From NCBI RefSeq assembly GCF_044324875.1, contig NZ_CP172185.1: 64,000 bases of DNA. One strand, 5' to 3'. Below are positions 1-64,000 of the stretch, in pieces. The notes below the pieces were generated by a model. It saw only the letters and a program-made list of their open reading frames with translations, was not told the DNA's origin and made no database searches. Each line of letters opens with the position of its first letter. The first letter of the stretch is position 1. Position numbers and translations under genes: made by a program. Origin of the DNA: Escherichia coli (GTDB lineage Bacteria; Pseudomonadota; Gammaproteobacteria; Enterobacterales; Enterobacteriaceae).

Positions 1-2
1 TG

Positions 3-638
3 ATGTCGCTGCTGCTGATGGCAGTCAGCATTCCGGCGGGGGCGGCGCTGCATGATATCCCGGAGGGATACGTGCGTGTGGCGGAACAGCATGGTGTTCC
101 GGCAGAAGTACTCTATGCCGTCTCGCTGACCGAGACGGCCATGGTCCCCTCCGCCATTGGTGCTGTAATGAAAAAACGGAATGAGGATTACAGGGTACCA
201 GCAGTGGCACGTCCCTGGCCCTGGACCATCAATGTGGCGGGCCGGGGATACCGCTATGCCAGTCGACTGGAGGCCTGGCAGGCCCTCCAGGTTTTTCTGA
301 AACGATATCCGGCCCGACGGATTGATGTGGGGATAGCCCAGGTCAATCTGGGCTGGAACGGGCACCGTTTTGCGTCCACATGGGCGGCATTTGACCCGTA
401 CACCAGTCTGAACACGGCGGCGGTCATCCTGAGAGAATGTCGCCGTCGCCATCCTGACAGCTGGCTGCAGGCTGCCGGCTGTTATCACCATCCGGCAGGC
501 GGCGCACCCGCAGTACGCTACATCGCGCTGGTGAGGCGGCATATTGACCGCCTCCACCGTGATGCGGTCAGTACGTCAGGTGTGACTGCCATGAATCCCC
601 GTTATATCCGGACAGAACCCCGGGAGTTAACCCCATGA
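3..638 (+). CDS. SLT-domain lytic transglycosylase of ICE transfer module; 5' end may continue upstream of window
   Basis: ORF opens at window edge; SLT-like motifs (LTETAM, GIAQVNLGW); first gene of co-oriented overlapping operon. Confidence 0.5.
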   Translation: MSLLLMAVSIPAGAALHDIPEGYVRVAEQHGVPAEVLYAVSLTETAMVPSAIGAVMKKRNEDYRVPAVARPWPWTINVAGRGYRYASRLEAWQALQVFLKRYPARRIDVGIAQVNLGWNGHRFASTWAAFDPYTSLNTAAVILRECRRRHPDSWLQAAGCYHHPAGGAPAVRYIALVRRHIDRLHRDAVSTSGVTAMNPRYIRTEPRELTP

Positions 639-1162
639 AACGATTTAAACGATATGTCATGACGACCGCAACGGGTCTGTTGCTGTGCGCGGCTCAGGCC
701 GGCGCGGAGCTCAGGGTGATTGCTGACCTTGGTGGCAGTGATGCCGGCAGGTTTTATGAAGCAATAAACCGCCAGGCGGACAGCGGAACGTCGTCGCCTG
801 TCACGGCGCTGCTGCCGCAGGGGGAGAGTGCGATGCTGCCGGTGTCCACACCGGAAATGTCTCCCGGAGAGGTGACGCCGAGATCACTGCAGTTACCGGG
901 GCTGGGGGCACTGTTCCTCGTGGGGGATGATGCACTCTCCCGTCAGTGGCTGCAGACGAATGCGGCCGCGCTGCTTGAAAGGAAGGCTGCCGGTATGGTG
1001 GTGAGCGTGACGAATGAGAGCGGTCTGCAGGCGCTGCGGGCGCTGGCTCCCGGTGTGATGATGGTACCGGCTTCCGGTTCAGCACTGGCCCGCCGTCTGC
1101 AGCTTGACCACTGGCCGGTGCTGATAACGGACAGTGGTATCAGCAGTGTGGTGATGCCGTGA
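635..1162 (+). CDS. ICE-associated exported protein, function unknown
   Basis: N-terminal signal-like segment; start overlaps upstream stop (operon coupling). Confidence 0.45.
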   Translation: MKRFKRYVMTTATGLLLCAAQAGAELRVIADLGGSDAGRFYEAINRQADSGTSSPVTALLPQGESAMLPVSTPEMSPGEVTPRSLQLPGLGALFLVGDDALSRQWLQTNAAALLERKAAGMVVSVTNESGLQALRALAPGVMMVPASGSALARRLQLDHWPVLITDSGISSVVMP

Positions 1163-1752
1163 TGCAGAGACAACTGACGGACCTGTTACAGGAAGGCACG
1201 TGGCACGGCATTCTGCTGTGCGTACTGGTCGTGCTGTTTCTGTTTTTTCCGCTCCTGTGGGGGCGATGCAGACGTCGTGAACGCGCCAGTGAGCGTCGTC
1301 ACCGCCGTTACCGCGCTGCGGCTGAACGTGTGCTGACAAAGCTGCCGGAAGGTGGGGCGGGTGTGAAATACCTGCGAAAAATTAACCCGTATGTGTTTGA
1401 AGAACTGCTGCTTCTGGCGTTTGAACGCAGGGGGATGGCGGTCATCCGTAACACACGTTACAGCGGAGATGGTGGCCTGGATGGTCAGGTGCTGATTGAC
1501 GGCGAGCGGTGGCTGATTCAGGCCAAACGTTACGGACGGACCATCCGTCCGTCACATATTGATGATTTTGGTGACCTGCTGCGCCGTGAAGGCTGCCGTG
1601 GATTTTTTATTCACACCGGTCGTACGGGACCGGCCAGCCGGGCACGGCTGGCGCTGTGGCCGGATATTGAGCTGGTCAGCGGGCAGCGTCTGCTGAAACT
1701 GCTGAACGGGGCATTGCTGCCGGATGAACTTACCAGAGGAGCGCGGAGATGA
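1159..1752 (+). CDS. membrane-anchored restriction-endonuclease-fold (Mrr-like) protein of ICE transfer module
   Basis: N-terminal TM helix then segment resembling Mrr catalytic core (DG..D...QAKRY); overlaps neighbours. Confidence 0.45.
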   Translation: MMQRQLTDLLQEGTWHGILLCVLVVLFLFFPLLWGRCRRRERASERRHRRYRAAAERVLTKLPEGGAGVKYLRKINPYVFEELLLLAFERRGMAVIRNTRYSGDGGLDGQVLIDGERWLIQAKRYGRTIRPSHIDDFGDLLRREGCRGFFIHTGRTGPASRARLALWPDIELVSGQRLLKLLNGALLPDELTRGARR

Positions 1753-2261
1753 TGACGGTAAAACGGATGTTTATGTTTTTATTCAGAATAACGATTGTCT
1801 GGCCATCCATGCTGACAGGATGCGTGATGATGCTGTATTTCGCGGAGGTCGCCGGCGGTGGTGTGGCGGGACTGGAGCAGCGTTACGGGGTGGAATCCGC
1901 CCGCTGGCGTGATGCGCCGGAAGGGATGGTGATGACAGCGCAGTGCCCGTCGCGTCCCTTTATGGCGCCTGTGAGTGCCGGGGAGTGGCGTGCACTGGCT
2001 GCATCTGATGATGAATGCAGCCAGGTTCCGCGCTCTTTCAGAGAAGCTGCAGAGGGCGATGTGCAGTCGCTGCGCAGAGTGGCACTGACACTTCTGCTGG
2101 CATCCGTGGTTCTGGAAGCGCTTTCAGCCTGCATTCTGCGCCGGGTAACGGCATCCGTCCGGGTATCACCACACTGTGGATATGGCTGCGGACGTGGTGC
2201 GGTGGCGCACTGGCCAGAGAGTCGCGTTCACGCTGCACCGGAGAAAGGAGAGCGGGTGTGA
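1749..2261 (+). CDS. ICE-associated putative exported/lipoprotein
   Basis: hydrophobic N-terminus with LTGC lipobox-like motif; start overlaps upstream stop. Confidence 0.4.
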   Translation: MMTVKRMFMFLFRITIVWPSMLTGCVMMLYFAEVAGGGVAGLEQRYGVESARWRDAPEGMVMTAQCPSRPFMAPVSAGEWRALAASDDECSQVPRSFREAAEGDVQSLRRVALTLLLASVVLEALSACILRRVTASVRVSPHCGYGCGRGAVAHWPESRVHAAPEKGERV

Positions 2262-3043
2262 ACGTTTCATTTACTGAACAGGTGCAGAGGGATATGCCGC
2301 AATGGGCGAATGACCCGTTACTGGCATGGGATGCCACCGCGTTTGCGGCAATGTCGGATTTTATTACAGAGCACTACTGGACGGGACAGGGCAGCATCAA
2401 TGTGTTCCGCATTGTGGGAACTGACCATCCACAGTATGCCGGAATGACCTGGCTGGAGCTGCTGGAGCGCGGTAACCGTATGGACATCAATATCCCGTTA
2501 CTGGAAAAAAATCCGGGATACTACACGCAGGCAGAGCAACAGCATGCCGGGATGAGTTTTGTCAGCACGGATGGCGTTGACTGGTATGTCAGTACAGACG
2601 GCAATCACCGCAGTTGCCTGGCACGCTTTCTGTTTCACCTGCAGGGGGAGGAGCGCACACAGCTTCACAACGTGGCACAGAGTATTTATCACACAGACCG
2701 GGCGTTCTGGTCTGCCTGCCGGGAAATCCACAACCTGACTGACGCGCTGTCCCGGCATGGTGTATATATCCGTCTGCAGATCCGACGGCAGTGTGTTGCC
2801 CGCGAAGACCTGGCCTGCTGGAAAGTGGACCGTTTCAGCACAGAGGCGCAGCTGACAGTGGATGACGTGCGTGCCGGCGGACATGATATGCCTGCGGTGT
2901 ATAAGACGTTGCTGCTGAATGCGGCAGACGCATGGCGTGAGGTGATGGTATTACAGCGCAGACTGGAGGCGCTGTCTGCATCACCGGGGAACGATTTGCC
3001 ACGCACATGGTGGCGACGTCTTTTACGGAAGGGGGACATGTAA
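2258..3043 (+). CDS. ICE-associated hypothetical protein
   Basis: GTG start overlapping upstream stop (GTGA) after GGAGAAAGGAG; long ORF in operon frame; table ORF 2015-3043 trimmed. Confidence 0.4.
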   Translation: MNVSFTEQVQRDMPQWANDPLLAWDATAFAAMSDFITEHYWTGQGSINVFRIVGTDHPQYAGMTWLELLERGNRMDINIPLLEKNPGYYTQAEQQHAGMSFVSTDGVDWYVSTDGNHRSCLARFLFHLQGEERTQLHNVAQSIYHTDRAFWSACREIHNLTDALSRHGVYIRLQIRRQCVAREDLACWKVDRFSTEAQLTVDDVRAGGHDMPAVYKTLLLNAADAWREVMVLQRRLEALSASPGNDLPRTWWRRLLRKGDM

Positions 3044-5160
3044 TGAGCAACCGCTATGTCATTGAGGCATTGCTGAGACCGGCTGTGGAGTTCAATACGG
3101 CAGTGGTGGCAGCAACAGCAGCATGTATCTGTGTGACAGCCCCCTGGGCGGTGGCGCTGGCACCCACCGTCAGTTACGCCACTGCCGGTGGATTTGCCCT
3201 GCTGGCCGTGGTGCGTTTCCGGCAGGGGATGAACATCATCCGGTATCGCCGTAATCTGCGCCGGCTGCCCCGCTATGTGATGAGTACACGGCAGATCCCG
3301 CTCAGCCGTCAGCGGCTGTTTCTGGGGCGGGGATTTCGCTGGACCCAGAAGCATACCCAGCGTCTCCAGGATACGCTGCGACCGGAGGTGGCACACTATC
3401 TGCAGCCGGGCGGACTTTACCGGCTGGCGCGCTGGCTGGAAATGAAAACGGAACACCGTCTGCCCGCGCTGGGGAAACTGCTCCGGCATGAGTCGTCGCT
3501 GAATCCTGTGCGTCCTCTGCCGCCGGTGGGGGGAAATCCCGCCCTGCATGGTATTGAGCCGGATGAACAGGATGTGACGCTGGCTCTGGGGGAGCGTGTG
3601 GGGCATACCATTGTCTACGGCACCACCCGTGTCGGTAAAACCCGCCTGGCAGAACTGCTGGTCACTCAGGATATTCGCAGGGGAGAGGTGACCATTGTTT
3701 TTGATCCCAAAGGTGATGCTGATCTGCTGCTGCGTGTCTGGGCGGAAGCACACCGTGCCGGGCGGGGTGATGAACTGTATATTTTCCATCTGGGATGGCC
3801 GGAAATTTCGGCCCGATATAATGCGGTGGGACGCTTCGGGCGTGTTTCGGAAGTGGCTTCCCGTGTGGCCGGGCAGTTGTCCGGTGAAGGGAACTCGGCG
3901 GCTTTCCGCGAGTTCGCCTGGCGGTTCGTCAACATCATTTCCCGCGCCCTGGTGGCACTCGGTGAGCGCCCGGACTACCTGCTGATTGTGCGGTATGTGA
4001 ACAACATAGCCGATCTCTATATCCGCTATGCCGGAAAGGTGATCCGCGAGCGCATGCCGGAACTGGAGCAGGCGATTGCGAATAACCAGAATGTGATCAG
4101 CGAGGAGGATGTTCCCCGCACCATGCAGAACCAGCCGGATGCGGTACGTATCTGGTCCATCGAGATGGCCCTGAGCAGTGAGGAGGGTAAAAAAATTTAC
4201 GATCCGATCCTGGACGGGCTTCGCAGTGCGGTCCGCTATGACCGTACCTATTTTGACAAAATCGTGGCGTCCCTGCTGCCGCTGCTGGAAAAACTCACCA
4301 CGGGCAGGATCGCAGAGCTGCTGGCACCGGACTATCTGGACATGAACGATGCGCGACCGATTTTTGACTGGGAACAGGTGATCCGTAAAAAGGCGGTGGT
4401 CTATATCGGCCTGGATGCACTCAGCGACAGTGTGGTAGCCAGTGCTGTGGGGAATTCGATGTTTGCGGACCTGGTGAGCGTGGCGGGGCATATCTACAAG
4501 CACGGCATGCATGCCGGTCTGCCCGGTAAGGGGGAAGGCAAAAATGTGGTGAACCTGCACTGCGATGAGTTTAACGAACTGATGGGGGATGAGTTTATTC
4601 CGCTCATTAACAAGGGGGGCGGTGCCGGTATGCAGGTCACCGCGTACACCCAGACATCGTCAGATATTGAAGCGCGTATCGGTAATGCAGCCAAAACGGC
4701 GCAGGTTCAGGGAAACTTCAACAACATGATCATGCTGCGTGTCAGGGAGAACAGGACGGCAGAGCTGCTGACCACACAACTGCCTCAGGTGGAGATCTAC
4801 ACCAAGACGCTGGTCTCCGGTCACCAGGATACGGCGGACGTGTCTGCCGGTCAGGATTTCACGTCCAGCACCCAGGATCGTGTCGGCACGGTGAAGGTAC
4901 CTCTGCTGGAGCCGTCAGATATTGTCACCCTGCCCAAGGGACAGGCGTTTGCCCTGCTGGAAGGGGGGCAGCTGTGGAAAATCCGGATGCCGCTGCCGGC
5001 AGGGGATACGGATGACGTGCTGATGCCGGAGAACATTGCCCGGGTGGCAGAGGCGATGAGACAGAACTATCACACCGGTGAAGGATGGTGGAATGAGCCG
5101 CCGTCAGCGCAGGCCGCCGGAACAGATGAAGGAGGCGGATATGGCGGAAGCGCGTCGTGA
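3043..5160 (+). CDS. traD: conjugative coupling protein TraD (VirD4-like ATPase), ICE class
   Basis: 706 aa; N-terminal TM helices; Walker A GTTRVGKT; ATG 1 nt overlap with upstream stop, GGGGGA RBS. Confidence 0.8.
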   Translation: MSNRYVIEALLRPAVEFNTAVVAATAACICVTAPWAVALAPTVSYATAGGFALLAVVRFRQGMNIIRYRRNLRRLPRYVMSTRQIPLSRQRLFLGRGFRWTQKHTQRLQDTLRPEVAHYLQPGGLYRLARWLEMKTEHRLPALGKLLRHESSLNPVRPLPPVGGNPALHGIEPDEQDVTLALGERVGHTIVYGTTRVGKTRLAELLVTQDIRRGEVTIVFDPKGDADLLLRVWAEAHRAGRGDELYIFHLGWPEISARYNAVGRFGRVSEVASRVAGQLSGEGNSAAFREFAWRFVNIISRALVALGERPDYLLIVRYVNNIADLYIRYAGKVIRERMPELEQAIANNQNVISEEDVPRTMQNQPDAVRIWSIEMALSSEEGKKIYDPILDGLRSAVRYDRTYFDKIVASLLPLLEKLTTGRIAELLAPDYLDMNDARPIFDWEQVIRKKAVVYIGLDALSDSVVASAVGNSMFADLVSVAGHIYKHGMHAGLPGKGEGKNVVNLHCDEFNELMGDEFIPLINKGGGAGMQVTAYTQTSSDIEARIGNAAKTAQVQGNFNNMIMLRVRENRTAELLTTQLPQVEIYTKTLVSGHQDTADVSAGQDFTSSTQDRVGTVKVPLLEPSDIVTLPKGQAFALLEGGQLWKIRMPLPAGDTDDVLMPENIARVAEAMRQNYHTGEGWWNEPPSAQAAGTDEGGGYGGSAS

Positions 5161-5902
5161 TGCGGAACGCAGCCCGCAGTCCCGGGCGCCCCGTCAGCAT
5201 GGTCTGCTGTACAATCTGGTGTGGGGCTGGCCGTGGGCACTGGTGGGGCTGATTTTATCCTCCCTGCTGCTGAGTCTGTTGATTGAGTATGCCGGTATGA
5301 CGTTTTTCTGGAGTGAGGAGGGGGCGGCGCACAGCCGCGCTGTCATGAACACGGAGCTGGGCTGGCTGTCAACGGAGTTCACCCGCAGTCTGCTGCTTTC
5401 CGCGCCGGCAGAAACGGTGCCTGCGTGGATTTCCGCCGCGTATCAGTGGCTGTTTGTGGACAGTGGCATGCAGACATGGCTGCATGCACAGCAGGCGGGG
5501 ACGGCGGCAGGCAGAAGCGTGTCTGAATTCAGCAGTGAGCTGAGTCAGTGGCTGGCTTATCATCTTCATGACTACCTGCTGGCGACGGTGTATGTGACGG
5601 TGGTGACGATGGTCAGGGTGGTTATTCTCGTCCTGTCCGTTCCGTTGTTTGTGATGGTGGTTCTGGTGGCCGTTGTGGAGGGGCTGGGGCGCCGTGATTT
5701 GCGGCGTTACGGCGCGGCTTATGAGTCCAGCTTTGTCTATCATCATGCAAAAAAATCAGTCAGACCGGCGATTTATGTCCCCTGCATTATTTACCTTTCC
5801 TGGCCCGGCGCGGTATATCCGAACCTGCTGATATGGCCGGCGGCCATGCTGCTGGGACTGGCGGTTACCGTGACTGTGGCATCGTTCAAAAAATATCTCT
5901 GA
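5141..5902 (+). CDS. ICE-associated inner-membrane protein
   Basis: GGAGG RBS 7 nt upstream of ATG; several TM segments; start inside 3' end of traD. Confidence 0.5.
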   Translation: MAEARRDAERSPQSRAPRQHGLLYNLVWGWPWALVGLILSSLLLSLLIEYAGMTFFWSEEGAAHSRAVMNTELGWLSTEFTRSLLLSAPAETVPAWISAAYQWLFVDSGMQTWLHAQQAGTAAGRSVSEFSSELSQWLAYHLHDYLLATVYVTVVTMVRVVILVLSVPLFVMVVLVAVVEGLGRRDLRRYGAAYESSFVYHHAKKSVRPAIYVPCIIYLSWPGAVYPNLLIWPAAMLLGLAVTVTVASFKKYL

Positions 5903-6320
5903 TTCATGCGCCGGACACCCCGGTGCAAAACGTGTTTTGTGGCGGGGTGTCGGCAGACAAGCCACGTACTGACTGTCACAGCGCGTCAGCGTAAGAGCAC
6001 CGGCAGCAAGGGAATGACAACAATGGTGATGACGATGATGAGCAGGTTGATGCCCCTGATGACGTCATATAACCAGACAGGGCACTGTGGCTCTTCCCTG
6101 ACGATATATAACACAACAAAAAACCAGGTAAGACTGAACAGGGCCCGGTACGGAAGGGCGGTGAGGAGAAATTCCATGCTGATGTTTCCTCTTTACGGGG
6201 GGTCATTAGCGGGAAACTGTAGTGATGACCTGTTTCAGTAAACAGAAAAAATCATTAAAGATGGAATAAAATTGCGCCCCGGCGCGGGGATATGTTCCGG
6301 CATTCAGCCATGTCCGTTTT

Positions 6321-6341
6321 CCCTTAAAAATTTTCAGTTTT
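6321..6341 (+). promoter_or_regulatory. conserved upstream motif shared with 17145-17166
   Basis: see paired feature; lies in 520-bp noncoding gap before RAQPRD gene. Confidence 0.3.
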
Positions 6342-6420
6342 ACAAATAGAGTTTATCGCTGACCGGCACACCTGCCTTCTTCATGCTGTACGCACCCACA
6401 GATTCTTAACGGAGGTGCGT

Positions 6421-6762
6421 ATGTTTTCTCTTCCCGCATTTCCCCGGCGTGCCGCTGCCCTGGCAGGTACTACCGGGATGATGCTTCTTGCCATTGTGGC
6501 TGTGCCGGCTCAGGCCGCCGAAAAGGATGAGCTGGCAACGGCCATGCGTCAGCTTGACCAGGTACGGGAGGCGCTTGACCGTGCGAGAACGGTTTCCCTT
6601 CAGGCCACGCCTCATGACGGGCGTTATTTCTTCGACTACCCGCGTGCACAGGCTGACATTCAGACCATACAGGCGGGTATTGACCGTTATCTCACGCCGT
6701 CCCGTGCCCAGCCCCGAAACGGCAGTGCCGTGACCGGTGAATACCGGCGGGAGCGTCCCTGA
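6421..6762 (+). CDS. RAQPRD-motif ICE protein (exported)
   Basis: GGAGG RBS; signal peptide; motif PSRAQPRNG typical of RAQPRD family of ICE proteins. Confidence 0.55.
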   Translation: MFSLPAFPRRAAALAGTTGMMLLAIVAVPAQAAEKDELATAMRQLDQVREALDRARTVSLQATPHDGRYFFDYPRAQADIQTIQAGIDRYLTPSRAQPRNGSAVTGEYRRERP

Positions 6763-7004
6763 TGGCGCTGACGTCGGCACAGACCACGGCCTTTATGGCG
6801 GCATCCGGTGGCCTGGCAGTGAATGAGCTGCATCTGACCGCTGTGGGAATACTGGTTGCCGTTCTCTTTCTCTGGGCCGCCTGGGGACTGTCGGATGCAT
6901 GGTCCGGGTGGCGTAACGGTGACGTCAGGGAATCTTCGTTTATCTGGTTTACCGTCCGTACCGCACTGCTGCTTGTCAGCAGTATCTGGATGTTTGCGGG
7001 CTGA
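6762..7004 (+). CDS. small ICE membrane protein
   Basis: 80 aa, two hydrophobic helices, start overlaps upstream stop. Confidence 0.45.
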   Translation: MALTSAQTTAFMAASGGLAVNELHLTAVGILVAVLFLWAAWGLSDAWSGWRNGDVRESSFIWFTVRTALLLVSSIWMFAG

Positions 7005-7031
7005 TTTTCCGTTTTCTTTAAGGAGACATAC

Positions 7032-7397
7032 ATGTGTAAAAAGGTTTTTACTTTCCGTCACCTGCGTCTGGCGGGAATGGGACTGATTGCTTTTCTGCTG
7101 GGCAGTCTGACCCCGGCACTGGCCGATTTGCCCAAAATTGAGCCGCCATCATCCGGTGGGGGTGGTGGTTTTTTTAATCAACTCAAAGGCTATATCCAGG
7201 ATGGCATTGTGCTGTTTGGTCTGGTAGTTGCAGCGGCGGCCTTTGTGAAGGTGGCGGAGGCTGCCGTTACCACTTTTTCTGAGGTGCGTGACGGCAAGAC
7301 GGGCTGGGGACAGTTCGGGGCCATTATCGTGGTCGGGGTGGTGCTGCTGGTTGCGGTTATCTGGCTGCTCGGCAAATCCGCGAACATCATCCTGTAA
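7032..7397 (+). CDS. ICE membrane protein, possible conjugative pilin-like subunit
   Basis: signal-like N-terminus, Gly run (SSGGGGGFF), two C-terminal hydrophobic helices; AAGGAG RBS. Confidence 0.45.
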   Translation: MCKKVFTFRHLRLAGMGLIAFLLGSLTPALADLPKIEPPSSGGGGGFFNQLKGYIQDGIVLFGLVVAAAAFVKVAEAAVTTFSEVRDGKTGWGQFGAIIVVGVVLLVAVIWLLGKSANIIL

Positions 7398-7415
7398 TCC
7401 ACCAGAGGGCTGTTT

Positions 7416-56266: not shown

Positions 56267-56267
56267 G

Positions 56268-57788: not shown

Positions 57789-57797
57789 GATGGCACC

Positions 57798-58259
57798 TCA
57801 CGGGAGTAGCGTCTGCCTGTTGCCGTTGTATTCCAGAATCACACTGTCCGGTGTGATTTGTTCCACCATGAACAGTGTACCGGGTAATGCCTGTCCGGCC
57901 CTGACATCAGTTTCAGTTCCTCCGGGGAGTATGACGCGTGCTGAAAGCTGTGGCTGAATACCAAAGATTTCTTTCAGACGGGGGGATGAAAATGCCTGTG
58001 AACCGGAGGAGGTGCCAGCCGCATTTTCCGGCTGATGTCCCGTGACAGAACCGGAAACCGGGGAGATACCCTGTTCCAGTGTCCGCAATTCATGACGAAT
58101 TTTTTCTCTTGCCAGCATCGCTTCATACAGGGCGGTTTCTTCCTGAATCTGCTCAATCTGCAGTTGTTTGTTCTGTGACGCGTCATTTTCGTTGCCGGCC
58201 ACTGCCATTGCCGGTAACAGCAGGGCTGCAATCAGCAGCGCTTTTGTTTTATCGTGCAT
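57798..58259 (-). CDS. pilP: pilus assembly protein PilP
   Basis: signal peptide MHDKTKALLIAALLLPAMAVA; table ORF trimmed. Confidence 0.45.
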   Translation of the reverse strand: MHDKTKALLIAALLLPAMAVAGNENDASQNKQLQIEQIQEETALYEAMLAREKIRHELRTLEQGISPVSGSVTGHQPENAAGTSSGSQAFSSPRLKEIFGIQPQLSARVILPGGTETDVRAGQALPGTLFMVEQITPDSVILEYNGNRQTLLP

Positions 58260-59547
58260 AATATTTACCTGTGAACTGATAACGGAAACGACCATTTTCC
58301 AGTTGTCTTGTGACAGAGAGAAAACGGACAGATGGCTCGCTGAAGCGCTCTGCCAGCTGGTTAGCCGGGAGTAGCGTCTGTATCTGCAGGTCATACTCTT
58401 TCCACGGTGGCTGGATGATGTTTCCGTTTTCATCAGTGAAGCTGTTATTGACTTCCTGCCAGTCAATCTGCAGTTGAACTGACTGTGCGAGCGTGGTCAG
58501 TCGTTCCTGCAGGTCTCGGGTTTCCGGAAGGGAATCAACCGGGACAGGATTATCCGGGAGCCGGAATGTGACCGGCAGTGCAACGCCGCCAGAGTTCCCT
58601 TCAGGCATAACAATAAACGGCCGGGTGTCTGTGAGTTCAGTGATGCGCCGGATGAAGGCTGTCACTGTCGTGCCTGCTGTATTGGTGTATGAAGAACGCA
58701 GATTACCGCTGTTACCGTCAGAAGAACATTCAGCCAGGGTATAACGCCATCCGGCAGCAGACAGTGGCGTCTGGTTCCATGTTGTGCTGCATTGCCGGAT
58801 AAATTCTCCGCTCTCAGGCTGCCTCGTCCATGGTGGCGTTATACGTGCTTCAGCTGCTTTCCGGGCGCTTTCTTCCCGTTCCGCTTTTTCCGCCTGCCAG
58901 ATTTCATAACGTTGCCAGCCGTACCACGATGCGCCAAGCAGCGTGATGATGAGTAAGGCTGTCATTAACTGTGGGCCTCTGGACACGGGGAGCAGACGCG
59001 CTTCTGCCGGATGCTTTCTGGTGCTGATCAGGTTTGACAGCGGTAGCGGGATACACCGACTGTCTGGTGAAAAACCGTCAGGTTCGTAGCGTACCCAGCC
59101 GTTTTCCGGTTCCGCATTGAGCATCAGGAACGTGTTGCGGGCTTCCGTGATTTCAGTCGGGGTACCGGTAACGTCGTTAACCAGAATGCCATTAATCACC
59201 GATACAAACGCACAGGTGAGTTCAGCGTCGTCGTTCTCGATGATGAAAATGGCATACCCACCTGATTTGAGTAGCGGGCGTATTAACATTGCCAGTGACA
59301 GGCACTGGCGAATGTTACGGGGGATATCTGCATCCTGACGACTGAGCAGGGCAATCATCATTTCATCACCGTTTTCACCGTCGTGGTTGTGGCAGGAAAG
59401 ATACAGTTCTGCGCCCTGTGACCGGGCAAACCGCCGGGCATTCCGGTAACCGGGAGGTATGCTCTTCCAGTCAAGGCCCGCAAGGAATGCCTGTTTACCC
59501 GATATCAGTGAAACCGGACGAATTTTTTTCTGCATTGACCCGTTCAA
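58249..59547 (-). CDS. pilO: pilus assembly protein PilO
   Basis: 432 aa, single internal TM helix; operon position. Confidence 0.45.
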   Translation of the reverse strand: MNGSMQKKIRPVSLISGKQAFLAGLDWKSIPPGYRNARRFARSQGAELYLSCHNHDGENGDEMMIALLSRQDADIPRNIRQCLSLAMLIRPLLKSGGYAIFIIENDDAELTCAFVSVINGILVNDVTGTPTEITEARNTFLMLNAEPENGWVRYEPDGFSPDSRCIPLPLSNLISTRKHPAEARLLPVSRGPQLMTALLIITLLGASWYGWQRYEIWQAEKAEREESARKAAEARITPPWTRQPESGEFIRQCSTTWNQTPLSAAGWRYTLAECSSDGNSGNLRSSYTNTAGTTVTAFIRRITELTDTRPFIVMPEGNSGGVALPVTFRLPDNPVPVDSLPETRDLQERLTTLAQSVQLQIDWQEVNNSFTDENGNIIQPPWKEYDLQIQTLLPANQLAERFSEPSVRFLSVTRQLENGRFRYQFTGKYYAR

Positions 59548-59558
59548 GGGAACCTCCG

Positions 59559-61184
59559 TCAGATTACGTGCGGTGTGATCAGCACAACCAGAATGGTGTC
59601 ATCGTCACCGCTGTCAGTGCCGCCACCCAGCCCGAAGAATGCCGGGCTGCCGACGCCCTGGCGCACGGATTTGCTGCCGGACTGCCGGAATCCGCTGAGA
59701 ATGACGGTCTGACCTGATTTCAGGTCGATGGTCTGGTTGATGGTTTTCAGGTCCACCGTGGGTACCTGTGCCCGGCTGCCGCCGCTCTCGAACACCTCAA
59801 AGGTGGGTTTGTCGGAGAGGTTCATGCTGAAGAGCAGCTGCAGGCTGCGCGCATCCGGCTGAATGAACGGCAGCAGGGTCATGTTGAAGCCGGTGGTGAT
59901 GGTGGCGGCGTTCAGGGAGGTGCTGGTCCCGACGTTGGCCGTGGTGTCGGTGGTGACACCTTCGATATAGCCCTGCTGGCTGGCCACCTGCATGGGCACC
60001 GGCGTCATGTTTTTGGTGACGGCGGAGTTCTGTGTGACCACGCTGACGGTGCCCTGACTGGAGAGCGCCTTCAGGAAGGCCTTCGAGCCGGTGAGCTTAC
60101 CGTCCACAATGGAGACGCCACTGGTGATGATGTCATCGGCGGCACTGCTGAATGCCCCTCCCAGCGTGAGGCCGAGACGTCCGTCGCTGAAGACGGCATT
60201 CCAGTCAATGCCGGCCTGGTCACGGCGGGTTTTTCTGACGCTGAGGACTTCCACGTTCAGCACCACCTGACGTCGCATCTCGCGGTTACGTGCCTCCACA
60301 AAACGGCTGACGGTGTCGAGGACCCGAGGGGTGTCGGTGACGGTGAGAAAGCCGGTGGCAAGCACCATCCGGCCGGTCCCGGGGGTCAGCATGGCACCGA
60401 CGGCATTTTTCAGGTCCTCATAGAGGGTGGACTTCATGTCGACCGTGGTGGTCTGGGTGTTGCTGGCCTCCCCGCTGAGGGTGCCGGCGTTACTGCCGGT
60501 ACTGCTGCCGGATGAGGAGGAGGCGGTGCCACTGACGACTCTGGCATTGTAGGCGACCTGGCTGTCCATGTAGGTGACCGGGAAGGTGCGTGTCTCCAGC
60601 CAGTAAAAGGTGATGGCGCGCCGGTCACTGTCGTAACGGTACGAGATACCGAGCCGGGAGGCGACGGTATCCAGCAGCTGCCGCAGCCCGGTGGCGCTGA
60701 GTTCCGGCAGGACGGCACCGCCGCCCGGGGGGATGACCTGTGCGCCACTGCCGACGGCGGCCAGCGGCACCATGCCGTTCGGGTCAGGTGCGGGGATTGC
60801 GCCTGTCAGCTGCTGTGTGGGGCCGGTGGTGGCCAGCGCCTGCCAGACGTCGGCGGTGATGGTCACGGGGATACCGCAGCTTCCGGTGATGCGCTGGGCT
60901 ATCTGCCGCAGGCTGATATCCCGGCGGGTGTTGATGATGATGGGGCAGCCCGGCAGGCTCTGGTGTGCGGGGCTGACGCTGACAGGAGAGGGGTTGATCC
61001 ACTGTCGCGTGGTCTCCGTGACCACCGGCCGGGATTTACGGAGTTCGCCCGCGTGCCGGCGCGCTTTCTCCAGTGTGGCGGTGGCGTCTTTTTCCGTGTT
61101 GCTGATACGTTCGGCCGTACCGCAGCCTGACAGCAGCAGGGCGACGGCAGTCAGTGGCAGGAGCATGTGTTGTCTTTTTTTCAT
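59559..61184 (-). CDS. pilN: secretin-like outer-membrane lipoprotein PilN
   Basis: lipobox LLSGC; large Gly/Ser/Thr-rich secretin-like body; table ORF trimmed. Confidence 0.6.
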   Translation of the reverse strand: MKKRQHMLLPLTAVALLLSGCGTAERISNTEKDATATLEKARRHAGELRKSRPVVTETTRQWINPSPVSVSPAHQSLPGCPIIINTRRDISLRQIAQRITGSCGIPVTITADVWQALATTGPTQQLTGAIPAPDPNGMVPLAAVGSGAQVIPPGGGAVLPELSATGLRQLLDTVASRLGISYRYDSDRRAITFYWLETRTFPVTYMDSQVAYNARVVSGTASSSSGSSTGSNAGTLSGEASNTQTTTVDMKSTLYEDLKNAVGAMLTPGTGRMVLATGFLTVTDTPRVLDTVSRFVEARNREMRRQVVLNVEVLSVRKTRRDQAGIDWNAVFSDGRLGLTLGGAFSSAADDIITSGVSIVDGKLTGSKAFLKALSSQGTVSVVTQNSAVTKNMTPVPMQVASQQGYIEGVTTDTTANVGTSTSLNAATITTGFNMTLLPFIQPDARSLQLLFSMNLSDKPTFEVFESGGSRAQVPTVDLKTINQTIDLKSGQTVILSGFRQSGSKSVRQGVGSPAFFGLGGGTDSGDDDTILVVLITPHVI

Positions 61185-61373
61185 GCAGAAATCCTTGTGT
61201 GAAACGTGAAAACAGTGAGCAGAGCAGGGAGGGCAGAAGCGCTTCGGGACTGAAGTCTGCGCGTGATGGCGATATATCCGCGGGACATGACCGCGGCCGG
61301 ATATGCAGACTTCAGTCCACAGGCTCCTCACACTGTGCGGGACAGCGAAGGTTAACGGTGCAGTGATGTCCCG

Positions 61374-61811
61374 CTAGTTGAAATAAACAAATGCGCTGTC
61401 AGGAATGACGGACGGCACGCTGATACCGGTGTCCTGACCTGTGGTGTTCAGCAGTCGCCGCCCCTTCACCCGGCCTGCCAGCGCGGTTTTGTGGGTGATG
61501 TCTGCCAGCGCACCTGCAAGCCCAGGGCGGTCATCCTGCCAGACAAAGACCCGCTGTCCGGCGATGATATGGCGGGTACCGTATACCGGGCGGAAACCCG
61601 TGGCGGTGACGGGGAGCGTGCCACCCCCCGTGCGCTCAGCCGGATGGGTGTACAGCCGGTCGTTAATGCCGTTCATGAGGCGGACCATCTCCCACGCACG
61701 TTCACGCATCTCCGCCTGCTCGCTGTACACGGTGACCCGGTGGGTACTGCTGTTGTGAAACCAGGTCAGCGCCACGGTCAGGGCCATGACCAGGGAGAGC
61801 GACCAGCCCAT
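61374..61811 (-). CDS. pilM: pilus assembly protein PilM
   Basis: 146 aa with N-terminal TM helix. Confidence 0.4.
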   Translation of the reverse strand: MGWSLSLVMALTVALTWFHNSSTHRVTVYSEQAEMRERAWEMVRLMNGINDRLYTHPAERTGGGTLPVTATGFRPVYGTRHIIAGQRVFVWQDDRPGLAGALADITHKTALAGRVKGRRLLNTTGQDTGISVPSVIPDSAFVYFN

Positions 61812-61813
61812 GG

Positions 61814-62539
61814 TCAGTCTCCCGGTCTGTCGCTGACGTGCACCACACACTGCGTGCTGTTGATGGCTGCATACAGCGGCGTCTGTGCGTCCTGATAGAG
61901 ACGGAAGAGTTCACTGAGCGCGTGGCGGAACTCGCCGGTGAAATGCAGCGGCGCATCGATGCTGTAATTGAGTCTGGGGTTCTGCCAGGCCAGCTGCCAG
62001 GTGCCACCGGCCTGACAGGGAACGGCGGCCACCCACTGCTCAAGACCGGCACGCAGCAGGGTTCCGCGGGCAAGAGTCCAGGTGGTCCGTGCATGCGCCG
62101 GTTGCGGCATGTTTGCTGATTTTTCCGCGGTTTTTTCCTGCAGACTGGTGGTGCCCGGGGTGGCCTGAGACGGACTGAACAGGGTGTTCCGCTCAATACG
62201 TACATGCTTCTTCTCCGTGTCGGTGATGGCGCGGAGCTGATATTTTTTCAGCATGCGTTCCGTAACGTAATTCCACTGGTCATTTCCCTTCCATGACACC
62301 GTGCGGGGCGGCCTGACATCCGGTGCAATGTCAAATGTCCATCCCGGCGGTATCAGTTGCTGCATGGCTTTTTTCAGTGATAACCCTTTACCGTCCCGGG
62401 GAATAAATTTCAGTGCTCCCGGAGCGCTGCTGACCGTGGACGATGAGGGTGCACTGACCTGAGAAGGTGACGGTGCAGCAAAAAGTGGAACAGAAAATGC
62501 CAGCAGCGGCACAATAAGAAGTGGTTTCAGTGGTGTCAT
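61814..62539 (-). CDS. pilL: pilus assembly protein PilL (exported)
   Basis: signal peptide; first large gene of minus-strand pil operon. Confidence 0.45.
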   Translation of the reverse strand: MTPLKPLLIVPLLAFSVPLFAAPSPSQVSAPSSSTVSSAPGALKFIPRDGKGLSLKKAMQQLIPPGWTFDIAPDVRPPRTVSWKGNDQWNYVTERMLKKYQLRAITDTEKKHVRIERNTLFSPSQATPGTTSLQEKTAEKSANMPQPAHARTTWTLARGTLLRAGLEQWVAAVPCQAGGTWQLAWQNPRLNYSIDAPLHFTGEFRHALSELFRLYQDAQTPLYAAINSTQCVVHVSDRPGD

Positions 62540-62591
62540 ATTATGGTCCTGTATCGCACATTTTTTGTGTTTCCTGAGCCTGTATCCGGTT

Positions 62592-62810
62592 TTATTCCGG
62601 CTGAACTCTGCTGCATGAGAATGCGGTGACGTTCACTTTCACACTGAACGATTTACCGGCCTCTTTTTCTTTTAAAAACAGCCTGACGCATTCAGGCTCA
62701 GTCATCGGTGTGTTCTGAAAACGCACCCAGGATACCGGTGCACCACCAGGCTTCAGGATGGTGGCTTCAATCCGGTATTTATGCGGTGTGGTGTCTGTTG
62801 TTGCTGTCAT
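62592..62810 (-). CDS. small hypothetical protein upstream of pilL
   Basis: 72 aa ORF. Confidence 0.3.
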   Translation of the reverse strand: MTATTDTTPHKYRIEATILKPGGAPVSWVRFQNTPMTEPECVRLFLKEKEAGKSFSVKVNVTAFSCSRVQPE

Positions 62811-63336
62811 TCATGGCTCCTGTTGCCGGTTTCCGGTCCCGGAAAAACAGGCGACATCAGCAACAAGGGGAAAAACGCGATGTCGCCTGAAAGGTACTGG
62901 TGCAGCGGTGCGTTGTACGGACGCAGGTCCGCACAACCGGAAATACACGGGATGATTCGGTCAGTGTATTTTCGTGTTGTGCGCCTGTACTGATACGGCA
63001 GGGTGTGATGAGTGTTACCTGTGGCTGCAGGCGCGGCACGTCACTCATAACGTAGCATTCTGTTTCCTCCTCAGCCCGGCTTCAGGGCGTTGCCGCAATA
63101 CCCGATTGTTAAAGAGCCTTACCGGCATGGTGTCCGGTGTCACCGCGCGGATAACGATACGGCGGTGTCTGAAGGGATGATGCTGCGGCGCTCTGCACAT
63201 GGCGACGATTAATTCTTTTTGTGTTTCTGAAAATTTATTGCCGGGAAATTTCTGGTGTGACAGGGTGAATTAATTCTGGTCAGCGACGCTCCTGAGAAGG
63301 CAGAGTGCGCTGACATTTCGTGAACGGAGGAATGCC

Positions 63337-64000
63337 ATGTCCCTGAATCCCACCGATGAACAGTCAGCCATCATTCACTGGCAGGGGGAAAAACTGGTGG
63401 TGAATGCCTTTGCCGGTACAGGCAAAACCAGCACACTGGTGCAGTTCGCCGCAGCCTGCCCTGAGAGCCGGATGCTGTATCTGGCCTATAACCGCGCGAT
63501 TCGTGATGAGGCGGAGCGCCGGTTTCCCTTTAATGTGGAGTGCAAAACCTCCCATCAGCTGGCGTATTCGCGGTTCGGAAAGCATTTCCGGCATCGTCTG
63601 GTGCCGGGGCTGTCAGTGACGGATGTAGCGAGAAAACTGAACACCCGCTACTGGACGCTTGCCCGTGTTGCCATGACCGCGCTGAATCAGTTCATCTGTT
63701 CGGCGGACGTGGCGCCCGGAATGCAGCATATGCCGCCTCCCGACGAGATGAAGGGCATGTCGCCACAGGATGCGCTGCGTGCCGTGCAGATCCTCTGGCA
63801 TGAAATGAGCAATCCGGATGGCAATTTTCCGGTCACTCACGACACCTATCTGAAGCTCTATCAGCTTTCCTCACCGGATCTGTCACGCAGGTGGGATACG
63901 ATCCTTTTTGATGAGGCCCAGGATGCGAATCCGGTGACGTCCGCACTGGTGCTGGGGCAGCGGTGCAGGGTGGTACTGGTTGGCGACCGTTACCAGCAGA
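63337..64000 (+). CDS. UvrD/Rep-family DNA helicase, 3' end beyond window
   Basis: GGAGG RBS; Walker A AGTGKTS; FDEAQD motif. Confidence 0.6.
   Translation, partial: MSLNPTDEQSAIIHWQGEKLVVNAFAGTGKTSTLVQFAAACPESRMLYLAYNRAIRDEAERRFPFNVECKTSHQLAYSRFGKHFRHRLVPGLSVTDVARKLNTRYWTLARVAMTALNQFICSADVAPGMQHMPPPDEMKGMSPQDALRAVQILWHEMSNPDGNFPVTHDTYLKLYQLSSPDLSRRWDTILFDEAQDANPVTSALVLGQRCRVVLVGDRYQQ

Follow-up and report, generated by a model that had tools for sequence, protein, structure and literature searches.

Two modules in opposite orientation, one for conjugative transfer and one for a type IVb pilus with its shufflon, frame the 64-kb stretch of Escherichia coli DNA analysed here (the window). Whether they belong to one mobile element, to two unrelated elements or to decayed remnants is the question raised by this locus. 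The preliminary description, made from the sequence alone, regarded the window as an internal slice of a larger integrative and conjugative element (ICE). To follow this up, we compared it with E. coli chromosomes that are near-identical to and collinear with the window, the three closest complete genomes being those of CM2, GF43 and TUM1886 (99.7-99.9% identity); no whole-window identity was found among the complete genomes in the collection. The flanks of these relatives showed one element, neither two unrelated ones nor decayed remnants. The window is very probably an internal slice, about 73%, of a single ICE of roughly 85-88 kb. We are likewise highly confident in assigning this element to the GI-type T4SS (MPF_G)/MobH family, in the SPI-7-PAPI-1-pKLC102 group and of the ICEEc2 kind. 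It is an ICE type already known in E. coli, and its layout is real but ordinary. The layout first described thus stood, but the position of iha, the extent of the cargo, the number of insertion sequences (IS) and the visibility of recombinases needed correction.

Transfer and pilus modules

Both modules proved to be as described in kind and orientation, one at 1-21923 (+) and the other at 47641-62539 (-). All 23 T4SS genes of the transfer module are uninterrupted ORFs, and NCBIfam matches exceeded the curated cut-offs for TraD (TIGR03754), the VirB4-like ATPase (TIGR03744), TIGR03747/49/52/56/55/46/51, RAQPRD and PFL_4695. The iron receptor gene, iha, had been counted with the central cargo; it sits instead within the transfer genes, after the ATPase operon and before TIGR03757. 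At this intergenic site, the sister lineage has 265 bp; a third lineage carries a DUF1187 gene there.

The minus-strand module was recognised by PilN (TIGR02520), GspE- and GspF-like proteins, a pilin and rci, and its gene lengths are those of intact annotated copies, while pilS or pilT is a pseudogene in some relatives. Strain-to-strain comparison revealed shufflon inversion, the entire 1284-bp unit being inverted relative to CM2. From traF to pilQ (47641-57477) the block is collinear with the IncI-type plasmid pLS45-2 and 88-98% identical to it, and traF and the 822-nt ORF adjoin rci in the plasmid order. Within the pil operon, the part up to 57477 is 94% identical to the plasmid, with a GC content of about 0.46-0.51; past this point identity is 70-73% or undetectable, and GC is 0.61-0.63. 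An ICE lineage of E. coli strain C5, at pheU, shares the ends, central block and T4SS and is without the pil block. The pilus block is optional in the family and in part plasmid-derived, a separate plasmid-type module by evolution.

Table 1. Features of the 64-kb window and the evidence for each.
Feature	Position	Strand	Evidence or remark
GI-type (MPF_G) conjugative transfer module	1..21923	+	NCBIfam; PGAP names in CM2
SLT gene	window start	+	~19 nt missing at edge
PFL_4695-family protein, then Mrr-like nuclease	after SLT gene	+	transfer module start
TraD coupling protein	3043-5160	+	TIGR03754
TIGR03747, RAQPRD, TIGR03758/45/50, PFL_4703, TIGR03749/52/51	between TraD and ATPase	+	
VirB4-like ATPase	11376-14081	+	TIGR03744
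Cargo insertion within transfer operon	14465..17244	+	carries iha; local GC dip to 0.51
iha, siderophore receptor/adhesin	14620-16707	+	NF010012, 1539 bits
TIGR03757/56/55, then TraG-N	TraG-N 20400-21923	+	module end
Conserved small backbone genes	21971..23534		include L31 paralogue; also in strain 64.1 and sister lineage
Type B (zinc-independent) ribosomal protein L31 paralogue	23271-23534	+	NF002462
Type II restriction-modification pair	23641..25983	-	GC 0.37-0.39; missing in strain 64.1
HNH-type endonuclease	23641-24813	-	PADLOC REase_II, 3e-86
EcoRI-family methyltransferase	24829-25983	-	PADLOC MTase_II, 7e-96
Microsatellite (ACAAGCA)17, plus strand (TGCTTGT)17	26034..26152	-	TRF
ccdA/ccdB toxin-antitoxin pair, intact	26212..26783	-	CM2 annotation; weak CcdB NCBIfam match
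STAXI motif, copy 1	28945..29117	+	Rfam RF01728, 85.3 bits (gathering score 40.5)
EFASI motif	29642..29764	+	Rfam RF02957, 71.7 bits (gathering score 51.2)
Internal tyrosine-recombinase-like gene	29883..30839	+	Pfam PF12835 2e-51, PF12834 1e-22
Zinc-finger-containing protein, backbone	30843..31583	-	relatives' annotation
STAXI motif, copy 2	31740..31911	+	Rfam, 83.3 bits; starts plus-strand ardA operon
ardA 5' part	33472..33682	+	collinear with intact CM2 ardA; reconstruction
IS21-family element, istA and istB	33683..36321	+	NF033546, NF038214 above cut-off
ardA 3' part	36322..36627	+	collinear with CM2
Backbone 3' of ardA: two hypothetical genes, LPD29, DUF1281	36824..39187	+	relatives' annotation
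LPD29	37665-38102	+	within 36824..39187
DUF1281	38210-39187	+	within 36824..39187
Type III restriction-modification system	39269..44223	-	GC 0.35-0.36; missing in strain 64.1
res	39269-42184	-	PADLOC REase_III
mod	42187-44223	-	PADLOC MTase_III
70-codon ORF 5' of mod, almost all (GCAAC)29	44220..44432	-	sequence, frame model
Debris zone: both IS3-family fragments, orphan ORF, relE-/higA-like genes, autotransporter 3' fragment	44497..47562		CM2 pseudogene annotation
337-aa orphan ORF	44710-45723		in debris zone
traF (47641-48843) and 822-nt ORF	47641..49766	-	87.7% nucleotide identity to plasmid pLS45-2
rci, shufflon tyrosine recombinase	49979..51103	-	family search and CM2 annotation
Shufflon	51164..52447		four sfx-like 19-31-nt repeats, two invertible segments
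pilV tip adhesin	52096..53385	-	3' end within shufflon
pilU, T, S, R, Q, P, O2, N, M and pilL/TcpQ-like gene	53382..62539	-	all intact
DUF1187 gene	62590..62808	-	comparison with annotated relatives
UvrD-like helicase, first 221 codons	63337..64000	+	heads uvrD-traI-int operon; runs out of window

Ends of the element and its mobility

The preliminary description saw no integrase, relaxase or attachment site. Indeed, no tRNA gene, att core, relaxase or att-site integrase was found within the 64-kb window, but two tyrosine-recombinase genes (rci and the PF12835/PF12834 protein) and the start of uvrD are present. The missing parts were found in the flanks of relatives, which carry integrase, relaxase, tRNA-Phe and a maintenance arm. 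Beyond the right end, CM2, GF43 and TUM1886 share the order uvrD, traI, tyrosine integrase, tRNA-Phe (pheV) and yqgA, with the integrase, the MobH/TraI relaxase and pheV 1-4 kb outside the window; TraI of relatives matches TIGR03760 (PFGI-1-class MobH relaxase). Beyond the left end, CM2, TUM1886 and JNEC-KY177 of the sister lineage carry TIGR03759, PilL2, Ssb, STY4534, TopB, STY4528, ParB, DnaB-PI and ParA, in this order, and the ParA-DnaB-ParB-TopB-Ssb arm lies about 20 kb outside the window. In relatives, a 49-nt tRNA-Phe direct repeat encloses an element of 81-86 kb; in three genomes, its 22-nt att core stands as a direct repeat at either end of the element. Compensatory T-stem changes are present in the tRNA copy next to the integrase. 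The closest relatives are integrated in pheV, a tRNA-Phe gene, at its 3' end. Judging from such flanks, the window's own copy would occupy pheV, pheU or malS and would have intact int, traI and par genes.

Both modules occur, with order and orientation unchanged, in 33 of the 35 close genomes and in all 18 sister-lineage genomes (51/53). The T4SS of these two lineages differs by about 16%, and the interval between the modules varies from 23 to 61 kb. Copies 99.3-100% identical were found in unrelated hosts (chicken, turkey and human; Asia, Europe and North America) and at three different chromosomal sites, which argues for recent movement. One of them, at pheU in strain CH4804, matches the window at 99.5% identity in the T4SS and 99.3% in pil. 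In PMC13127887, a 2026 study of clinical E. coli, an ICE of CH4804 is reported to transfer experimentally, and this ICE-2 may be the pheU copy; ICEs of this type at pheV, pheU and malS are described there as transferring and mobilising the chromosome (citing Roche 2010).

The collinearity with pLS45-2, the GC shift within the pil operon and the pil-less lineage of strain C5 would also fit two unrelated neighbours, a GI-type ICE beside an integrated IncI-type plasmid fragment (pil-shufflon-rci-traE/F). We consider this very unlikely. By position, the pil block falls within the att repeats, with uvrD-traI-int on one side and the remaining element on the other; it is paired with the T4SS in the same order in 51 of the 53 genomes of both lineages; neither an IncI replicon nor I-type T4SS genes occur with it; and the promoter-proximal stretch from pilL to pilP does not resemble the plasmid. 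For these reasons, the element is best seen as mosaic in origin and yet single. It is similarly improbable that the region is a decayed, immobile island whose ICE remnants are retained for the cargo alone, as might be suggested by the disrupted ardA, the IS element and IS fragments, the frameshifted relE/higA, the autotransporter stump, the pil pseudogenes of some relatives and the statement of a 2008 review that SPI-7 had not been seen to transfer. Against decay, all transfer and pilus genes in the window are intact, near-identical copies occupy unrelated hosts and several sites, the shufflon is still switching, and experimental transfer is reported for elements of this ICE type.

Genes for a GI-type T4SS are also found, at 74-78% identity, on certain plasmids of Klebsiella, Citrobacter and Pantoea, and the element encodes ParA, ParB and DnaB. 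This could point to a region that is carried on a plasmid, or is an integrated plasmid, instead of a chromosomal ICE. The chance of this is negligible in our estimation, as 146 of the 147 E. coli loci matching the transfer module are chromosomal, no plasmid covers even 15% of that module, and tRNA-Phe att repeats flank the element.

Backbone and cargo of the central interval

The interval between the modules measures 25.7 kb and shows a sharp fall in GC (0.35-0.40 versus 0.58-0.62), consistent with the roughly 25 kb of cargo first described. However, comparison of three lineages, by which backbone and cargo were separated, placed roughly 10 kb of it in the conserved backbone, so that only about half of the interval is true cargo. 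These 10 kb are the stretches at ~27.0-33.7 and 36.3-39.2 kb; together with 21.97-23.5 kb, they are kept in all the copies compared, two diverged lineages among them, and the STAXI/EFASI/ArdA block is therefore assigned to the backbone. EFASI lies 3' of STAXI and 5' of the integrase-like gene, its canonical context as PMC12370729 gives it from Rfam. The recombinase-like gene is kept in all three lineages and is distinct from the att-site integrase. For the neighbouring zinc-finger-containing protein, NCBIfam and PADLOC searches gave no matches.

The truly variable cargo comprises both restriction-modification systems, ccdAB, a single IS21-family element and debris. Both methyltransferase loci carry microsatellites, as had been noted: (TGCTTGT)17 at the type II methyltransferase and (GTTGC)~30 at the type III mod. 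By sequence and a frame model, (ACAAGCA)17 lies within a short leader ORF (ATG at 26160), which has a TTGACA box on one side and the start codon of the methyltransferase on the other. This repeat has 11 units in CM2, read directly, and BLAST span lengths suggest that it is 21-107 nt shorter in five other genomes. The GCAAC repeat (GTTGC on the plus strand; 44281-44428) has 29 to ~30 units, and in the window's copy the TGA of the 70-codon ORF overlaps the mod ATG as ATGA. CM2 has 33 units, and five other genomes would differ by -16 to +18 units, again from BLAST span lengths. The type III system matched NF012027 at 1074 bits. ccdAB varies along with the type II system, both being missing in strain 64.1. 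The toxin-antitoxin pairs of the preliminary description are thus real, ccdAB being intact and the relE-/higA-like pair of the debris zone frameshifted. The 337-aa orphan ORF had no matches in Pfam, NCBIfam or PADLOC.

The disrupted antirestriction gene was confirmed by its junctions and by CM2, in which ardA is intact and the IS21-family element absent. This element is 2639 bp long, with TG..CA ends, 23-nt terminal repeats at 33690-33811 (TRF) and a 7-bp target duplication, GCTTCAG. Its removal in silico restored an intact 169-codon ardA; the insertion has inactivated the window's copy. The 5' part of ardA has ~69% nucleotide identity to the ArdA genes of 1941 plasmids. Where several IS elements had been counted, we found one intact IS21-family element and two IS3-family fragments.

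Proposed working and relation to known elements

The att-site integrase would recombine the 49-nt repeats to release a circle, which TraI and the UvrD-like helicase are predicted to nick and unwind; one strand may then be exported by TraD and the GI-type T4SS. Thin pili have a known role in transfer, and an R64-like pilus, its PilV tip switched by Rci, would stabilise mating and set recipient specificity. The conserved central block (STAXI/EFASI, second recombinase, ArdA, DUF1281) may help the element to become established in a new host and to counter restriction there, and ParA/ParB/DnaB/TopB/Ssb may maintain the circular form. The true cargo occupies a few hotspots: iha in the T4SS operon, the type II system with ccdAB, the type III system with the debris, and the IS21-family element in ardA.

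Transfer of ICEEc2 reportedly needs three DNA-mobility genes and a type IV pilus, which would correspond to uvrD-traI-int and pil. The two restriction-modification systems, ccdAB and the IS21 insertion in ardA are strain-specific cargo of the window in this comparison. ICEEc2, from avian E. coli BEN374, belongs to the pKLC102/PAGI-2 (PAPI-like) family and inserts at phe-tRNA (Roche et al. 2010, J Bacteriol 192:5026, as cited by others); the name, and the likeness in family and target, are taken from this citing literature.

The flanking arms of relatives encode SPI-7-type DnaB, STY4528 and STY4534, whose NCBI names refer to SPI-7, and the GI-type T4SS is shared with SPI-7 of Salmonella Typhi, which stands for a sublineage of GI-type T4SS islands. 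SPI-7 also targets phe-tRNA and has a pil operon with rci, located between its ssb/topB arm and the T4SS. Relative to this order, the window's pil block is on the other side, inverted and adjoining uvrD-traI-int. The cargo differs, being the Vi capsule and the SopE phage in SPI-7 (2008 review). PAPI-1 and pKLC102 of Pseudomonas aeruginosa share the GI-type T4SS and a PFGI-1/MobH-class TraI, a similarity at the level of HMM families only, and likewise have ParA (Soj) at one end and the integrase at the other; they target tRNA-Lys, whereas the window's relatives target tRNA-Phe. The type IVb pilus is used for transfer in this group (Carter 2010, as reported in a citing paper).

GI-type T4SS islands have been described as syntenic across ICEHin1056, PAPI and SPI-7. 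ICEHin1056 of Haemophilus influenzae is the prototype, with a conserved set of ~24 genes, and the window's TIGR0374x-0375x families belong to the same class; its cargo, unlike that of the window, is antibiotic resistance. ICEHin1056 is not known to have an R64-type pil/shufflon block. With R64/ColIb-P9-type (IncI complex) plasmids, the order pilL-M-N-O-P-Q-R-S-T-U-V, sfx, rci, 822-nt ORF and traF is identical in pLS45-2 and the window. The window's block differs in being part of a chromosomal ICE whose T4SS is GI-type rather than I-type, in its divergent, GC-rich pilL-pilP half and in a shufflon limited to four sfx sites and two segments.

Extent of the element and its integration site

The preliminary description had read this DNA as an internal slice of a larger integrative and conjugative element (ICE) of the SPI-7, PAPI-1 and ICEHin1056 kind, and the flanks of near-identical genomes supported this reading. 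The window is E. coli chromosomal DNA. At least 80% of the length of its first 22 kb was matched in 53 complete E. coli genomes (best, 99.9%), and the same genomes matched the remainder. By local BLAST, the genome of strain CM2 (NZ_CP158308.1) was collinear with the window from end to end, on the minus strand, with only five differences: the unit number of a heptamer repeat, a 2639-bp insertion in the window, an IS1414 copy found only in CM2, a 20-nt length change corresponding to a pentamer repeat, and a 1284-bp inversion.

A search of the window revealed no tRNA gene, att core, relaxase or att-site integrase, and the lack of the integrase and att core is what is expected of an internal slice. 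The earlier statement that no element integrase is visible holds for the att-site enzyme only, as two tyrosine-recombinase genes, rci and a gene for a PF12835/PF12834 protein, lie within the window. The integrase and the att sites were both found beyond the window ends in the relatives' genomes, and the flanks of the near-identical genomes gave no sign that the two modules belong to unrelated elements or to decayed remnants. On the right, CM2, GF43 and TUM1886 carry uvrD, traI, a tyrosine integrase gene adjoining tRNA-Phe, and yqgA, in that order, which is the pheV locus. TraI of CM2, encoded approximately 0.8-2.4 kb beyond the right end, matched TIGR03760 with 193 bits (cut-off 161) and also MobH, and the same protein is found in GF43 and TUM1886. 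This relaxase, known from the relatives and outside the window, is by its profile matches a predicted PFGI-1-class ICE relaxase of the MobH family. The left flank, read in CM2, TUM1886 and the sister-lineage strain JNEC-KY177 with names from PGAP/NCBIfam, comprises TIGR03759, PilL2, Rpn, Ssb, STY4534, TopB, PFL_4669, STY4528, a ParE-like gene, ParB, SPI-7-type DnaB and ParA. Thus, the arm typical of the SPI-7 sublineage (SPI-7-type DnaB, STY4528, STY4534, ParA/ParB, TopB and Ssb) is present in the relatives, outside the window.

The last 49 nt of tRNA-Phe recur just past parA, and a 22-nt att core forms a direct repeat at both ends of the element in CM2, TUM1886 and JNEC-KY177, bounding approximately 86.2, 84.8 and 80.8 kb, respectively. 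The window therefore represents about 73% of the element, with a further stretch of about 3.8 kb missing at the right end and one of about 19.8 kb at the left. Of the two tRNA-Phe copies, the one beside the integrase gene shows compensatory T-stem changes relative to the other, indicating that the tRNA receives a new 3' end from the ICE. The JNEC-KY177 element borders directly on yghD, the native neighbor of pheV, so that this copy looks like a clean insertion at pheV. In CM2, an older pheV island with its own, separate integrase gene lies in tandem with the ICE, which was apparently added to it.

Near-identical copies are found at pheV (CM2, GF43, TUM1886), at pheU (CH4804) and in malS (strain 64.1). 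They carry two integrase/TraI allele pairs, WP_000711123/WP_070127793 at pheV and WP_001696146/WP_001696147 at pheU (CH4804) and malS (64.1). The rest of the element is >99% identical across these pairs, and the integration-site module is thus exchangeable. The uvrD-like gene at the head of the mobility operon has its first 221 codons inside the window. Because the window stops within uvrD, its own site cannot be read directly; judging from overall similarity, pheV would be the best guess.

Whether the two modules form one element or two was addressed by locating both across the complete-genome collection. Among the matches listed, 33 of the 35 genomes with a transfer module of at least 98% identity had the pilus module in the same order and orientation, at a spacing of 23.3-45.5 kb (median 29.0 kb; 39.4 kb in the window). 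Of the two exceptions, one is a genome whose best matches fall in two separate copies, and in the other the pilus module was not among the matches listed. The modules were also paired in all 18 genomes of the sister lineage. As the interval varies and the modules do not, the interval looks like a cargo region inside one element.

Islands with a GI-type type IV secretion system (T4SS), such as ICEHin1056, pKLC102/PAPI, SPI-7 and clc, have been described as a syntenic family. According to the papers citing it, ICEEc2, from strain BEN374, is a PAPI-like E. coli ICE at phe-tRNA genes, described in 2010 (Roche et al.); it is linked to the window through the citation of Roche et al. for the CH-strain ICEs. 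A recent study (PMC13127887, 2026), which cites Roche et al. (2010), reported transfer of ICEs at pheV, pheU and malS from clinical isolates, with Hfr-like mobilization of the chromosome. The copy in CH4804, a strain from that study, is 99.5% (T4SS) and 99.3% (pil) identical to the window. Since the family has been described and the CH4804 copy is so similar, the architecture is already known, and the present copy differs only in cargo details. Excision and conjugative transfer would be expected from that literature and, indirectly, from the near-identical copies at pheV, pheU and malS.

As an architecture, the window adds little: descriptions of the family, its tRNA-Phe targets, the GI-type T4SS and the type IVb pili date back to 2004-2010, and dozens of complete E. 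coli genomes hold near-identical copies. The preliminary description was essentially right, with corrections to the place of iha, the presence of backbone in the cargo, the number of IS elements, and the recombinase genes and uvrD start inside the window. It was recently shown (PMC13127887) that this ICE type drives chromosome transfer in an Hfr-like manner as well as hybrid E. coli clones resistant to fluoroquinolones, so that a map of its backbone and cargo hotspots is useful for annotation and surveillance. Three by-products outrank the architecture itself: repeat-controlled leader ORFs before two restriction-modification (R-M) systems, a half plasmid-derived pilus operon, and a STAXI-EFASI unit common to rolling-circle plasmids.

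Positions of features in the window and in the genome records compared (L003 and L004, CM2; L006, sister lineage; L012 and L013, small plasmids)
Feature	Window	Other record	Remark
Window ends in CM2	1; 64000	NZ_CP158308.1 5368291; 5305639	minus strand
Mrr-like nuclease gene	1162-1752		within T4SS operon; weak PADLOC type IV restriction match (5e-5); "restriction endonuclease" in CM2 annotation
iha site	14465-17244
iha	14620-16707
Ribosomal protein L31 paralogue	23271-23534		type B (zinc-independent); ICE backbone in two lineages
Heptamer leader region	26026-26184
Heptamer (ACAAGCA)17	26034-26152
STAXI+EFASI unit	28945-29914	L012 2197-3140; L013 2109-3083	first STAXI starts at 28945
Segment shared with 3.1-kb plasmid	29239-29828		592 nt, 94% identical
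PF12835/PF12834 protein gene	29883-30839
Second STAXI	31740-31911
Insertion relative to CM2	33683-36321
Upstream ORF of mod	44220-44432		70 codons; ATG at 44432
Pentamer (GCAAC)29	44281-44428
337-aa ORF	44710-45723		conserved in CM2
Autotransporter 3' stump	47065-47562	L006 22552-26473	next to traF; sister-lineage pseudogene at same position
traF to pilQ	47641-57477
sfx-like repeats	51164-52447		four, 19-31 nt
Inversion relative to CM2	51165-52448
Integrase/TraI allele pairs		L004 37130-39802 (CM2); L005 4853-7521; L011 3903-6571
tRNA-Phe at integrase end and displaced native half, CM2		L004 36850-36925; L003 19710-19758	hybrid, 3' half from ICE; T-stem CGGTGG..CGCCTCC vs CCTTGG..CGAGTCC in displaced native half
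Region beyond attR, CM2		L003 19935-30000	second tyrosine recombinase gene and leoA-containing island

Transfer module, pilus module and shufflon

The plus-strand transfer module is real and intact: all 23 genes mapped from CM2 are uninterrupted ORFs in the window. GI-type systems were recognized by the conserved set and order of the TIGR03745-03759 families, RAQPRD, PFL_4695 and PFL_4703. In the window, twelve families of this mating-pair-formation set scored above the NCBI curated cut-offs in one co-oriented array, including TIGR03746/47/49/51/52/55/56, RAQPRD and PFL_4695. The TraD coupling protein (TIGR03754) reached 1087 bits (cut-off 648) and the VirB4/TraC-like ATPase (TIGR03744) 1401 bits (cut-off 521). 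The iron receptor gene that had been assigned to the central cargo, iha, in fact lies within the transfer operon, between ATPase-proximal genes and TIGR03757. In the sister lineage this intergenic site is empty, with a length of 265 bp, and in the third lineage it is occupied by a DUF1187 gene, which makes it a cargo hotspot inside the T4SS operon.

The minus-strand pilus/shufflon module proved equally real. It encodes a PilN secretin (TIGR02520), GspE- and GspF-like proteins, pilin, prepilin peptidase, PilV, an Rci-type recombinase and TraF, and its ORF lengths are those of intact copies in other strains. Four sfx-like repeats bound two invertible segments. Compared with CM2, both segments have been inverted together as one unit, the ends of which are sfx sequences identical over 21 nt. 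This inversion shows that the shufflon is active in nature and is direct evidence of Rci activity in the lineage.

Strain C5 represents a third lineage, located at pheU, whose element shares the int-traI-uvrD end, the T4SS and, with its STAXI and EFASI, the DUF1281/integrase-like block, whereas the genes of the pilus and shufflon, rci and traF are all lacking. In the IncI-type plasmid pLS45-2, pilL-V is followed by the shufflon, rci, an 822-nt ORF and traF, the very arrangement seen in the window. The segment from traF to pilQ is 88-98% identical to pLS45-2, whereas pilP-pilN is 70-73% identical and pilM/pilL is undetectable at the nucleotide level. GC content steps from approximately 0.46-0.51 (distal) to 0.61-0.63 (proximal) at this same pilQ/pilP switch. 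Given the lack of the block in C5, the split identity to pLS45-2 and the coincident GC step, the pilus module is an optional mosaic block, the distal half of which has, judging from these alignments, been exchanged with IncI-type plasmids.

These similarities raise the question of whether the DNA is itself an R64-like plasmid of the IncI complex, with which it shares the pilL-V operon, the sfx repeats and Rci with inversion. However, the TraH/I/J-type genes that are present in pLS45-2 are absent here, where only traF and the adjacent ORF are found. The element, being chromosomal and having neither I-type T4SS genes nor an IncI replicon, is therefore no IncI plasmid, even though its pilus block resembles the R64 thin pilus. 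The pilus block lies within the att boundaries and is co-inherited with the rest of the ICE. Next to traF, only a 3' stump of a large autotransporter gene remains; the sister-lineage pseudogene at this position is still about 3.9 kb long, which points to cargo decay beside traF.

Central interval and repeat-bearing leader ORFs

The interval between the modules measures 25.7 kb, in agreement with the approximately 25 kb of cargo proposed earlier. It is heterogeneous, however, and part of it is conserved backbone. Its GC content falls to troughs of 0.35-0.40, as compared to 0.58-0.63 in the modules. Backbone and cargo were separated by comparison with strain 64.1, whose element has the commonest form, JNEC-KY177 (T4SS identity 83.5%) and C5 (about 80%). 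A block consisting of STAXI, EFASI, an integrase-like gene, a zinc-finger gene, STAXI, ardA, LPD29 and DUF1281, together with the gene for the type B L31 paralogue, is kept across the compared lineages and is therefore backbone; the ardA position holds ardC in the sister lineage. The L31 paralogue may provide a fitness benefit under zinc limitation. The variable parts are the type II R-M system with ccdAB, the type III R-M system with its debris, and the IS.

The disrupted antirestriction gene was confirmed as ardA. The element splitting it belongs to the IS21 family, has TG..CA ends with a 7-bp duplication, and when removed in silico left a restored 169-codon ardA. It is the only intact IS: two others are fragments, so that the earlier count of several IS elements does not stand. 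Of the reported toxin-antitoxin pairs, ccdAB is intact, and the relE/higA-like pair is frameshifted with an IS3 remnant between its genes. The 337-aa ORF beside the type III R-M system gave no Pfam, NCBIfam or PADLOC match.

Both methyltransferase loci with microsatellites exist as described, one being a type II methyltransferase/HNH-endonuclease pair and the other a type III mod/res pair. At the type III locus, the pentamer fills a short ORF upstream of mod and lies outside mod itself. The TGA of this ORF overlaps the mod ATG (ATGA) in the window. The mod gene has its own GGAGG site, and the 678-aa Mod protein spans the full PADLOC profile from its own ATG. In a frame model, the pentamer number cycles the upstream ORF through three states, in which it ends 45 nt short of mod, at an overlap with the start of mod, or, out of frame, 47 nt inside mod. 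Direct reading gave 29 pentamer units for the window and 33 for CM2, and BLAST span lengths gave estimates of 13, 25, 25, 30 and 47 units for five other near-identical loci; these counts indicate that all three phases occur. The heptamer lies in a leader ORF downstream of a perfect TTGACA box, before the type II methyltransferase/HNH operon, and has 17 units in the window, 11 in CM2 (counted directly) and about 14 in TUM1886 (by span). With every third heptamer number, the leader ORF ends 4 nt ahead of the ATG of the methyltransferase gene.

The hypervariability of the pentamer between close strains is that expected of a phasevarion. Nevertheless, the classical arrangement, with the repeat within the mod frame, was rejected: the repeat belongs to the upstream ORF, which in the frame model meets a stop in each of the three frames and fuses to mod in none. 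We infer instead that both R-M systems may be switched by the phase of the leader ORF, through translational coupling or occlusion.

STAXI and EFASI sequences

Two STAXI sequences (RF01728) and one EFASI (RF02957), which follows the first STAXI, scored above the Rfam gathering thresholds in the window, and beyond the window a further STAXI (a double match) precedes STY4534-ssb. The STAXI copies of the ICE all share one orientation, and each heads a co-oriented operon: the integrase-like gene, the ardA operon and STY4534-ssb. Three lineages that differ by about 20% have the STAXI/EFASI block in the same order. The Rfam entry, in the portion quoted in PMC12370729, describes STAXI, EFASI and then an integrase gene, near ssb, topoisomerase and antirestriction genes, and raises a role in single-stranded DNA; the ICE context is exactly the one described there.

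A 3.1-kb plasmid of the ICE-bearing strain 64.1 encodes a Rep_1 rolling-circle initiator (PF01446, 4e-89) and carries STAXI (139 bits) and EFASI. It shares 592 nt with the window at 94% identity, and a 5.3-kb plasmid shares 677 nt at 96.8%. The non-coding STAXI+EFASI unit is about 0.9 kb long and is 94-97% identical over its EFASI-containing part (590-677 nt). Besides Rep_1, this unit is the sole conserved feature of the 3.1-kb plasmid, in which the Rep_1 nick motif CTTGATA is absent. Since a rolling-circle plasmid needs a single-strand origin, a role in single-stranded DNA priming or as a promoter would be the most economical for both the plasmid and the ICE. It is thus possible, though we regard it as rather doubtful, that the conserved middle of the cargo is an establishment region in which STAXI-EFASI would act as single-stranded DNA priming or promoter sites, comparable to the ssi/Frpo sites of plasmids or to the single-strand origins of rolling-circle plasmids. 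If this were true, the polarity of STAXI-EFASI would tell which ICE strand is transferred.

That STAXI is, by sequence, the single-stranded promoter (Frpo) of F/IncI leading regions was rejected, as STAXI matched only 19 plasmids, most of which also matched the GI-type T4SS or integrase-domain queries. The thousands of plasmid matches comprised ardA homology in 1941, and the remainder included approximately 1,080 records at 80-90% identity. Folding with RNA parameters favored the Rfam sense in nine of ten STAXI copies by 1-14 kcal/mol, and with DNA parameters the two strands were within about 2 kcal/mol of each other.
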